DNA of 64,000 nt, taken from a virus. The DNA lies in IMG/VR virus record IMGVR_UViG_3300050343_000182; one strand, given 5' to 3'. How positions within the stretch are numbered: position 1 is the first letter of the stretch; the number at the start of each line of letters is the position of its first letter. A program made the position numbers and the translations under genes. Under the pieces are notes generated by a model that did not search any database, was not told where the DNA came from, and saw only the letters and a list, made by a program, of their open reading frames with translations. This document shows positions 17,635-26,291 of this stretch, one piece after another.

Positions 17635-18761
17635 CTGTTTTCAACGACAAGAAAGTAGACACCAAAAAACAACCAATGTTTTTCGGAGCTCCCTTGGGGA
17701 TGCAACGATACGATGAATATAAGTATCCTGACTTCGACAAACTAACACAGACACAACTCGGTTACTTCTGGAGACCTGAAGAGGTATCTCTACAGAAGGA
17801 CCGTGCCGATTACAAGACACTGAATGAGCAACAAAAACATATCTACACCAGCAACCTCAAGTATCAGATCCTTCTGGACTCTGTGCAAGGGCGTGGTCCT
17901 GGCATGGCATTCTCACCTTACTGTAGTCTTCCAGAGTTGGAAGGATGCATGGGAGTCTGGGAATTCATGGAGCAGATTCACTCTCGCTCCTATACCCATA
18001 TCATCAAGAACGTATACGCAGACCCATCAGAAGTCTTCGATGCAGTATTAGATAATGAGAAGATCCTTGACCGTGCTACAGCAGTATGCAAAGCATACAA
18101 TGACTTCATTGAGGTAGCAACTGAGTGGTCACTCAGTAACATGTGGAAGGAAGGTTGGAAAGACTCTCCTACTTCACAGTGGACTATCAGAGATGTCAAG
18201 CGTAAACTCTATCTGGCGATTGCTAATGTCAATATCCTTGAAGGAATTCGGTTTTATGTTTCTTTTGCTTGCAGCTTTGCTTTTGGTGAACTTAAACTCA
18301 TGGAAGGTTCTGCAAAAATTATCTCCCTTATTGCCAGGGACGAGTCACAGCACCTCGCATTGACCCAGAAGATCCTCTACAAGTGGAAGAAGGGTGACGA
18401 TCCTGAGATGCAGCAGATCATTCAGGAAGAGGAAGAGACAGTGCGTCAGATGTTCCTTGACGCAGTTGCCCAAGAGAAAGAGTGGGCAAAATATTTGTTT
18501 GAGAATGGTAGTATGATCGGTCTTAACGAGCGTCTGCTTTCTCAATACGTGGAATGGATTGCTAATCGTCGTATGAAAGCAATCGGACTAGCACCCGCCT
18601 TCGATATCCCTGCTAAAAACAATCCTCTGCCTTGGACAGAGCACTGGCTAAATAGCAAGGGTCAACAAAATGCCCCTCAGGAAACTGAGATTGAATCCTA
18701 TGTCGTTGGGGGAATCAAGCAGGATGTTAGTGCGGAAACTTTTAGCGGGTTTAAGCTATAA
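17625..18761 (+). CDS. nrdB: ribonucleotide reductase beta subunit
   Basis: FWRPEEV, EQIHSRSY, LEGIRFY, RDESQH, QETEIESY. Confidence 0.98.
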   Translation: MGLTVFNDKKVDTKKQPMFFGAPLGMQRYDEYKYPDFDKLTQTQLGYFWRPEEVSLQKDRADYKTLNEQQKHIYTSNLKYQILLDSVQGRGPGMAFSPYCSLPELEGCMGVWEFMEQIHSRSYTHIIKNVYADPSEVFDAVLDNEKILDRATAVCKAYNDFIEVATEWSLSNMWKEGWKDSPTSQWTIRDVKRKLYLAIANVNILEGIRFYVSFACSFAFGELKLMEGSAKIISLIARDESQHLALTQKILYKWKKGDDPEMQQIIQEEEETVRQMFLDAVAQEKEWAKYLFENGSMIGLNERLLSQYVEWIANRRMKAIGLAPAFDIPAKNNPLPWTEHWLNSKGQQNAPQETEIESYVVGGIKQDVSAETFSGFKL

Positions 18762-18789
18762 AATTACAACATGGATACGGATACCCAAG

Positions 18790-18966
18790 GTGTATCCAGA
18801 TACACATCACGATGCCGAGAAGAAATTGGAAGAGACAAGCGAGGTCCCTGTATACAAACGAGACACAATCGACTGGTATTCCGAAAACCCCGATACATGG
18901 TATCAGGGACCACTTATCCTTCTTGAAGAAACTCAAGAAGGACTTAAAGAATACCAAGCCCATTAG
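18790..18966 (+). CDS. hypothetical protein (start uncertain)
   Basis: open frame filling the gap after nrdB. Confidence 0.4.
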   Translation: MYPDTHHDAEKKLEETSEVPVYKRDTIDWYSENPDTWYQGPLILLEETQEGLKEYQAH

Positions 18967-19049
18967 TAACACTCCCTACCATCGTCGCAAAAAGAAACGA
19001 AAGAAGTAGGGGGTTGCATAAATAGTAATGTCATGCTATCATGACAACA

Positions 19050-19275
19050 CGTTCATCCCACTCTTGGGTGGGACGCAAGTAAGTCGCGCAACGGAGCGTT
19101 GATCCCATGTTTGAATTACTTCTGTATTCATCACTCACCTGCCAACAAGCTGATACAATCATGCTTAAAATGAAAGCAAATGAGGATCTCTCACATGCTT
19201 TTAAGGTAGAGTTGATAGAGACCGTAAAGGAATCTGTCCCTGAGTGTTATTGGGACGCACACGATTGAAGGAACG
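19050..19275 (+). ncRNA. glutamine riboswitch-like element (glnA/Gln-I fold) with large P3-loop insertion
   Basis: P1 CGTTC/GAACG, P2 TCCCAC/GTGGGA, CGCA-AGTA...GAA E-loop, P3 AGTCG/CGATT; upstream of a DUF4278-type gene. Confidence 0.75.
19107..19268 (+). CDS. 53-aa ORF nested inside the riboswitch-like element
   Basis: MFELLLYSSLTCQQADTIMLKMKANEDLSHAFKVELIETVKESVPECYWDAHD* translated by hand. Confidence 0.7.
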   Translation: MFELLLYSSLTCQQADTIMLKMKANEDLSHAFKVELIETVKESVPECYWDAHD

Positions 19276-19308
19276 GGGATTAAAAACCCTAACTTCGGAG
19301 ACGAACTC

Positions 19309-19476
19309 ATGAACACACTTAACCTCATTCGCAAGCAAATTCACAAGGCATCTGCCTTGCATAACGCACAGATTACTCACACCACATATCGCGGTGTAAA
19401 GTATGACACACGTTGTGTGGAAAGCAAAGAGTCTCACGGGACTTTCTGCTACCGTGGAAAGACCTACAGCAAGTGA
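19309..19476 (+). CDS. DUF4278-type small protein (two YRG motifs)
   Basis: MNTL...TYRGVKY...CYRGKTYSK; GGAG RBS. Confidence 0.8.
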   Translation: MNTLNLIRKQIHKASALHNAQITHTTYRGVKYDTRCVESKESHGTFCYRGKTYSK

Positions 19477-19483
19477 CCTAAGT

Positions 19484-19508
19484 AAGAGGGGGTAACCCCT
19501 CTTTTTTA
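19484..19508 (+). terminator. intrinsic terminator
   Basis: AAGAGGGG-GTAA-CCCCTCTT followed by Ts. Confidence 0.85.
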
Positions 19509-21019: not shown

Positions 21020-21093
21020 GGTCCAGTAGCTCAGTGGAATAGAGCAACTGCCTTCTAAGCAGTCGGTCGATGGTTCGAATCCATCCTGGATCG
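21020..21093 (+). tRNA. tRNA-Arg(TCT), CCA not encoded
   Basis: GGTCCAG/CTGGATC acceptor stem, ACTGC-CTTCTAA-GCAGT anticodon arm, GGTTCGAATCC T-arm. Confidence 0.95.
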
Positions 21094-26145: not shown

Positions 26146-26174
26146 ATGGACGGTCGTTACACAACGACACACTT

Positions 26175-26291
26175 GACGCCTCACCAAGACTAAACAGCGT
26201 CATTAAATAACAGTCTTTCATACCTGCTGCTGAGGGTGCAACAGGCATATTATATTAGTGTTTCCCTGCACTCATACCTACCCTAATTTCA

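Follow-up and report, generated by a model that had tools for sequence, protein, structure and literature searches.

Riboswitch aptamers are usually regarded as compact, untranslated leader elements. Can such an aptamer also be built around a translated gene? The question is raised by positions 19050–19275 of a 64,000-nucleotide stretch of DNA (the window) from IMG/VR record IMGVR_UViG_3300050343_000182, a T4-like cyanomyovirus, i.e., a marine cyanophage. The original prediction for this locus was a glutamine aptamer of the glnA type, whose P3 helix is opened by a very large insert holding a complete open reading frame. Comparison with homologous sequences indicates that this architecture is a real, conserved variant form of the glutamine riboswitch, with a predicted aptamer function. 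A metabolite aptamer would here be built from halves 175 nt apart, with a translated gene between and within them.

The cassette and its distribution

Upstream of the locus is the ribonucleotide reductase subunit B gene, which ends at 18761. The cassette itself probably runs in the order promoter, riboswitch with ORF1 inside it, DUF4278 gene, terminator, and thus contains two genes:

19014..19042, + strand: promoter-like TTGCAT-17 nt-TATCAT, read from the sequence
19107..19268, + strand: ORF1, 53 codons (T4-GC_430 / phrog_504), small helical-hairpin protein (as predicted) with two conserved cysteines
19309..19476, + strand: ORF2, 55 codons, DUF4278-like (T4-GC_937, phrog_545)
19484..19503, + strand: intrinsic terminator, an 8-bp stem followed by a T run, closing the two-gene cassette

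From the promoter-like site, the RNA would start at approximately 19049–19050, at the edge of the aptamer. In the alignment of relatives, TTGACT-17-TATAAT is found at the same distance from the aptamer; a scan of the window for the strict sigma-70 consensus called no promoter. The sequence CATAAATA at 19017–19024 resembles a T4-type late promoter, and 107 of 163 relatives carry TAAATA about 32 nt 5' of the aptamer, overlapping the sigma-70-like promoter. Given this overlap, the cassette may have both early and late starts. An inverted repeat, TGTCATG-CTAT-CATGACA (19029–19046), spans the -10-like TATCAT just 5' of the aptamer. Inverted repeats of at least 6 pairs occur at the same place in 145 of 163 unique upstream regions of relatives with quite different sequences; since the repeat varies in sequence and stays paired, it covaries as a hairpin or a dimer-binding operator would. 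Further upstream, a box of the NtcA type, GTA-N8-TAC, is located at 18966–18979 (-84 from the aptamer) in the window, where it may be due to chance. Such boxes are present in 81 of 165 unique upstream regions compared to 11 of 165 shuffles, and 62 of them start at -52 to -61, which suggests that the nitrogen regulator controls the cassette in addition to the riboswitch. Between the reductase gene and the cassette there are two overlapping ORFs, one of 98 codons (18670–18966) and one of 65 codons (18812–19009), the latter with a tail rich in Lys/Arg.

The stretch 19017–19476 is conserved in 404–417 phage records. Almost all are myoviruses of Synechococcus or Prochlorococcus, and the stretch is also present in the S-TIM5 group, which is unrelated to the other carriers. 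Hundreds of IMG/VR contigs carry homologous units as well. When 185,579 species genomes were scanned for the exact pattern, 6 matches turned up, none in a clear host chromosome. All six are on contigs of metagenome bins or of a contaminated assembly, two of about 190 kb. The contigs are filed as bins of Synechococcus, Verrucomicrobiales and Euryarchaeota, as an uncultured bacterium and as an isolate assembly of Nonlabens, and have the appearance of cyanophage DNA that entered these records by mis-binning or contamination. The homologue set that was parsed consists of 176 unique complete units from cyanophage isolates and IMG/VR contigs, i.e., 169 long forms and 7 forms without ORF1.

Elements of the aptamer

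The type 1 glutamine riboswitch is the glnA RNA motif (RF01739), which was first described in PMC2864571. The following elements of such an aptamer were identified in the window:

19050..19054, + strand: P1 5' strand CGUUC, pairs with 19271–19275 and matches the RF01739 consensus
19056..19073, + strand: P2 hairpin, UCCCAC (19056–19061) with GUGGGA (19068–19073), loop 19062–19067, supported by covariation
19074..19081, + strand: joining strand CGCAAGUA (DNA CGCAAGTA), junction plus loop-E 5' strand, invariant in the alignment
19078..19081, + strand: loop-E 5' strand AGTA, read from the sequence
19082..19086, + strand: P3 5' strand AGUCG, pairs with 19262–19266, including one G:U pair
19089..19101, + strand: inner hairpin (P1'), CAACG (19089–19093), GAG, CGUUG (19097–19101)
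19093..19096, + strand: ORF1 ribosome-binding site GGAG, within the inner hairpin
19103..19107, + strand: P2' 5' strand UCCCA, pairs with 19251–19255; its last base is the A of the ORF1 ATG
19251..19255, + strand: P2' 3' strand UGGGA, inside ORF1 codons 49–50
19262..19266, + strand: P3 3' strand CGAUU, covers the last two codons of ORF1 and the first base of its stop
19267..19270, + strand: loop-E 3' strand GAAG; G19267 and A19268 complete the UGA stop
19271..19275, + strand: P1 3' strand GAACG, pairs with 19050–19054

By sequence count, the helices, the ORF at 19107–19268 and the overlap of its TGA (19266–19268) with GAAG all lie where the original prediction placed them. Both strands of the E-loop are likewise present, but AGTA had been assigned to 19077–19080 and is actually found at 19078–19081. 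P3 is split by 175 nt, and its distal end is a junction with no closing loop. Compared to the RF01739 consensus CGGAAGUA, the joining strand CGCAAGUA has one departure, a C for G which is fixed across the phage family, while the loop-E 3' strand agrees with the consensus GAAGGAACG.

At the gathering score, Rfam called no glutamine riboswitch in the window; the families that it did call are PhotoRC-II at 26162–26258 (49.9 bits) and a tRNA at 21020–21093 (69.3 bits). Local-mode searches with RF01739 and RF01704, which had been proposed together with the original prediction, did not recover the whole aptamer. RF01739 gave only a partial match to the 5' part (15.3 bits against a gathering score of 35), and RF01704 reached 24.8 bits against 33 over 19047–19100, with several unpaired positions in the second hairpin. 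RF01739 misses the full aptamer in the window because the 175-nt insert exceeds the reach of the model.

Natural relatives without the ORF are informative here. In 7 of the 176 units, e.g., in Synechococcus phage ACG-2014f, ORF1 is replaced by a short hairpin, and the aptamer core is the same as in the ORF-bearing forms. Six of these relatives were scanned and five of them passed the gathering score of RF01739 (41.1, 43.6, 42.9, 40.3 and 38.4 bits); the long forms scanned alongside them were undetected. All five matches take the nested parse, in which the 5' CGUUC, P2 and CGCAAGUA are aligned with the distal GAAGGAACG, and they bridge 38–48 nt inside P3. The inner unit of ORF-less relatives scored 32.1 and 34 bits with RF01704 (gathering score 33), and the RF01739 score of the nested parse was higher than that of either single unit. 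To judge from these alignments, the natural ORF-less forms settle the choice in favor of the nested fold.

Covariation of the nested fold

Covariation was assessed in the 176 units and in a MAFFT alignment of 130 sequences, with 500 shuffles and slid controls. In the alignment, 98.0% of the cells of the nested structure are paired and 11 pairs have changed on both sides. These counts overstate the number of independent events, since the sequences share ancestry and many of them were gathered by a pattern in which much of the 5' core is fixed. None of the 500 shuffles reached the observed values, and the slid controls paired 29–51% of the cells.

The helices differ in how much they tell. The original prediction called for covariation in P1 and P3, which was found for P3 only. 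P3 is 100% paired in the 130-sequence alignment. Among the 176 units, its second pair is G:C in 170, A:U in 2, U:A in 1 and G:U in 3, and its third pair U:A in 174 and U:G in 2, with 0 mismatches at both positions. P1 has 99.8% of its cells paired, with one G:C cell broken and otherwise unvarying. As P1 never varies it carries no covariation of its own, and is therefore consistent with the fold and uninformative. Infernal chose the same P1 pairing in the ORF-less relatives. P2 has compensatory changes at all four tested pairs, and its inserts in relatives reach about 230 nt.

Additionally, the inner elements covary. The outermost pair of the inner hairpin is G:C in 148 units and C:G in 28, the window being among the latter, with 0 mismatches. 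The long-range helix P2', which spans about 145 nt, has compensatory changes at all five pairs and few mismatches in the 176 units. Some phages have a wholly different P2' helix at the same place, e.g., UCCUAUG/CAUAGGA or GAUUAUGG/CCAUAAUC. The original prediction included a glnA-type aptamer with a very large P3 insert, an inner hairpin, a second P2-like stem enclosing a complete ORF, and a stop codon that forms part of P3 and loop E, and the homologues bear out all of these. The recurrence of the layout in so many phages, together with the covariation of its helices, puts it far beyond chance. CGTTGA was considered as the start of five units and rejected; the motif lies inside P2 loops, and the real 5' strand is CGTTCA in all five.

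The nested gene

ORF1 is an annotated CDS in most isolate genomes, where it is listed as a hypothetical protein of T4-like gene cluster 430. It is full in 159 of the 169 long forms, from the same ATG, approximately 10 nt 3' of the inner CGUUS, to a stop U(G/A)A in P3, i.e., UGA or UAA in relatives. Of the remaining ten, seven are four codons shorter, ending at a UAG within the P2' 3' strand; in two the stop precedes that strand by eleven codons, and the ATG is missing from one. That the ORF is absent from all ten was considered and discarded, as most merely end those four codons earlier. The family comprises 149 distinct proteins of 49–66 residues, some very divergent, with in-frame indels, and all share an N-terminal hydrophobic stretch and two conserved cysteines. 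The entropy in codons 3–47 is 0.80, 0.38 and 1.15 at codon positions one to three, and dN/dS is about 0.24. The inner ORF is conserved, as the original prediction required, and by its pattern of substitution ORF1 is a real coding gene.

The end of ORF1 behaves differently from the rest. Codons 49–53 (W-D-A-N/H-D) show almost no third-position variation, because the same bases also serve as the 3' strands of P2' and P3 and as the CGCA junction, and the protein ends in D-A-N/H-D whatever the rest of its sequence. As far as the alignment can tell, the last five codons and the stop are held fixed by the aptamer core. At the other end, the inner hairpin has a GAG-type loop in 154 of 169 long forms and in none of the 7 ORF-less forms, where the loop is GAU, GAUU, GGUA or GAA, never GAG. 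The GGAG upstream of ORF1 is missing in about 15 of the 169 long forms.

AlphaFold2, run on the family alignment, predicts a helical hairpin with helices at 12–24 and 30–43 (pLDDT 80), and the two cysteines are at its open end. A Foldseek search with this fold against the PDB returned nothing at E <= 0.001. ORF1 matched no Pfam family, only phrog_504 of 'unknown function' in PHROGs, and in the Atlas only unnamed 'hypothetical protein' clusters without a Pfam family. The CAA-CAA (Gln-Gln) codon pair, which the original prediction had pointed out, does not hold up as a sensing cue. Codons 13–14 vary freely among homologues and the family consensus there is x-D; this lack of conservation rules the pair out.

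In 35 of the 176 units, the outer P2 hairpin encloses an extra ORF of 65–75 codons (T4-like cluster 936, phrog_6471). It starts with an ATG approximately 10 nt 3' of CGUUC and ends at a stop within either the P2 3' strand or the AAGUAA of loop E. It is intact in 34 of the 35 units (examples are L085:150-350 and L106:283-462), and its family is homologous to ORF1 with the cysteines aligned (hhalign probability 95%, E-value 3.9e-8). The window itself has no ORF in the outer P2 hairpin.

Alternative explanations

Could the locus instead hold a tandem pair of ordinary type 2-like aptamers which act as a pseudo-cooperative doublet? Unit 1 would then be 19050–19094, with P1 19050–19054/19089–19093, and unit 2 would be 19097–19275, with P1 19097–19101/19271–19275 and ORF1 in a hairpin. 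The RF01704 match to unit 1 and those to the inner unit of ORF-less relatives fit this arrangement, 157 glutamine doublets have been published (PMC9481103), and in the common G/C variant the four strands can pair either way. However, each of the P1-like helices is unpaired in 13 of 130 sequences (10%), including the window, and neither covaries, whereas P3 and the inner hairpin, with which they compete, are 100% paired and carry compensatory changes. Furthermore, unit 1 has no loop-E 3' strand, unit 2 has neither a loop-E 5' strand nor a P3 of its own, and RF01739 prefers the nested parse to either unit. We consider a simple tandem pair quite improbable. A switch among the four strands, in which both folds are used and glutamine or a ribosome shifts the balance like an attenuator with pairings 1-2/3-4 versus 2-3/1-4, seems unlikely. 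Its strands are mutually complementary in 148 of 176 units (84%), both Rfam models give partial matches, and a local fold must form first during transcription, since the polymerase reaches the 3' strand about 170 nt later than the other three. Yet the C/G variant (28 of the 176 units, and the window) weakens both tandem helices at no cost to the nested fold, and there is no covariation specific to the tandem state. Of the competition between nested and tandem folds in the original prediction, the possibility stands, but covariation backs the nested fold only, the tandem helices being mismatched in 13 of 130 sequences.

The same data bear on whether the aptamer or the gene is functional at all. 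If a small gene had been inserted and had destroyed the aptamer, the flanking halves would be relics, in line with a window that Rfam does not call and with halves 175 nt apart. Relics would not be expected to look like these, which are nearly invariant, are joined by helices that covary across many cyanophage genera, keep the same core with and without the ORF, and freeze the last five ORF1 codons at synonymous sites; a dead riboswitch is very improbable. We give almost no credence to ORF1 being untranslated and its 160 nt being a structured RNA expansion of P2'. Nucleotide conservation is high in parts among close relatives and the region is folded with a z-score of -2.6, but the codon-position pattern, the dN/dS of about 0.24, the whole-codon length changes and 149 distinct proteins with two conserved cysteines all speak for a coding sequence, as do the paralogous ORF family in the other hairpin and a reasonably confident fold prediction (pLDDT 80).

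Probable expression platform

The DUF4278-like ORF2 matches Pfam PF14105 with 22.8 bits (E-value 1.2e-4), below the cut-off of 25.3, and phrog_545 with 119.9 bits; in isolate genomes it corresponds to cluster 937. It looks like the gene that is regulated by the switch, judging from the elements around its start:

19265..19298, + strand: sequestor helix, UUGAAG (19265–19270) with CUUCGG (19293–19298), supported by minimum-free-energy folds and covariation
19275..19290, + strand: small hairpin, GGGG (19275–19278) with CCCU (19287–19290), enclosed by the sequestor helix
19297..19300, + strand: ORF2 ribosome-binding site GGAG, 8 nt before the ATG at 19309, read from the sequence

The first two bases of the ORF2 GGAG, which is AGGAG in relatives, sit in the sequestor helix, and this helix excludes P3, loop E and P1. 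In thermodynamic folds of the window and of the ORF-less form, the loop-E 3' strand pairs with CUUCRG just 5' of the ORF2 ribosome-binding site. Among 172 units, the pair formed by the second stop-codon base is G:C in 84, G:U in 45 and A:U in 43, and never A.C. As these pairs indicate, the helix between the loop-E 3' strand and the ORF2 ribosome-binding site covaries; it is the probable expression platform, which the original prediction had overlooked. The helix hides part of the ORF2 ribosome-binding site, and the arrangement looks like a glutamine-ON platform. An ON switch has been established by experiment for the Synechocystis gifB leader, for which pairing of the aptamer 3' end with the ribosome-binding site was proposed (PMC6212724).

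In some phages, the aptamer is separated from the next gene by an additional conserved piece, which consists of AAAACGGAUCC, a small hairpin and then GAGAAGGUU (L093:575-640, L099:654-720 and L105:684-750 are examples). The GGUUC of this piece could pair with the aptamer GAAC, and would then be a different expression platform.

Proposed mechanism

The explanation that we regard as probable is one type 1 (glnA-class) aptamer around ORF1, with an ON platform that sequesters a ribosome-binding site, and coupling to ribosomes. The sequence comparisons directly support the helices, the compensatory changes within them and the status of ORF1 as a coding gene. In the proposed structure, P3 would open into a second three-way junction, formed with the hairpin at 19089–19101 and the long-range helix P2' which closes around ORF1. 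The ribosome-binding site and start codon of ORF1 would be made from this inner junction, and the 3' core of the aptamer would be the last codons and the stop. Without glutamine, the loop-E 3' strand would pair with CUUCGG (19293–19298) and conceal part of the DUF4278 gene's ribosome-binding site; glutamine would let the aptamer take up the loop-E 3' strand, and the DUF4278 gene would be translated.

From this structure we infer ligand binding, the polarity of the switch and ribosome coupling. A ribosome on ORF1 would unwind the inner junction, followed by P2', P3, loop E and P1, as well as the sequestor helix. Since the ribosome must unwind aptamer helices, translation of ORF1 and folding of the aptamer would be mutually exclusive. 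Folding should in turn hinder initiation on ORF1, because base pairing in the folded RNA would occupy both its ribosome-binding site and its start codon. A ribosome ending at 19266–19268 would cover 19262 to about 19280. It would thereby melt the 3' half of the aptamer and the sequestor helix, so ORF2 should be coupled to ORF1. From the geometry, the melting of the 3' half by a ribosome, as in the original prediction, is plausible.

A more elaborate reading, which is possible but somewhat doubtful, has two glutamine cores at the two ends of a shared P3, i.e., a pseudo-symmetric double sensor with genes in its P2 arms and mutual gating. The inner core would be a circular permutation of the outer one, CGUUS-A-P2'-CGCA...P3...CG-SAACG. 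The P2 arms would house the genes, one in the phage of the window and two paralogous ones in some relatives, and ribosomes on a nested gene and glutamine in the cores would gate each other. The aptamer would assemble only around an untranslated ORF, and termination on the ORF would open the next gene.

With the aptamer around ORF1, the same nucleotides would serve as codons, as stop codon, as predicted ligand-binding core and as the strand opposing a ribosome-binding site. This widespread cyanophage cassette appears to read the nitrogen status of the host and to set the levels of an IF17-like protein and of a small two-cysteine protein. It is also a direct test case for ribosome traffic versus ligand sensing on one RNA.

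Comparison with known systems

Glutamine riboswitches are already known in cyanophage genomes (PMC9602691, PMC9964418), and so are tandem glutamine riboswitch arrangements (PMC2864571; PMC9481103). Among the papers searched, we found no description of an ORF inside a glutamine aptamer or of the nested fold. A text search of PMC9481103, where glutamine doublets and triplets are given only as tandem arrangements, did not find the word 'nested' or any ORF mentioned in connection with glutamine riboswitches. In a preprint on the cyanophage cve gene, the only riboswitch mentioned is a theophylline riboswitch that serves as a tool. Split aptamers in phage genomes would be systematically missed by covariance-model scans, and the published glutamine 'doublets' may include nested forms.

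The cyanophage element shares the P1 sequence, the P2 hairpin, the loop-E AGUA/GAAG and the P3 helix with type 1 riboswitches (RF01739). Like the type 1 leader of Synechocystis gifB (IF17), it precedes a DUF4278 gene and has a 3' aptamer strand able to pair with the ribosome-binding site, an arrangement that points to an ON switch (PMC6212724). However, P3 does not end in a short hairpin but opens into a second junction with a hairpin and a gene-enclosing helix, and the stop and last codons of the nested gene belong to the aptamer core. The joining strand also has C where the consensus has G, and the Rfam model misses the window. With type 2 riboswitches (RF01704, the Downstream-peptide motif of marine picocyanobacteria) it shares CGUUCA, a hairpin, CGCA and then GGAACGG, and type 2 riboswitches are located upstream of short DUF4278-type ORFs in the phages' hosts. 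The second hairpin of type 2, whose loop holds GGAACG, is absent here; the window score of 24.8 bits is under the threshold of 33, and covariation joins the 5' CGUUC with the distal GAACG and not with the local one.

Both the nested form and the tandem glutamine doublets (PMC9481103) have two aptamer-like cores per leader. While the cores of doublets are side by side, those described here are nested and share P3, and there is a gene in one arm, in some relatives in two. A parallel may also be drawn to leader-peptide attenuators and coupled small ORFs, in which translation of a short upstream ORF likewise remodels the RNA that controls the next gene. In the cyanophage cassette, however, the ORF encodes a conserved protein of 49–66 residues instead of a string of regulatory codons, the Gln-Gln pair is not kept among homologues, and the structure to be remodeled would be a metabolite aptamer.
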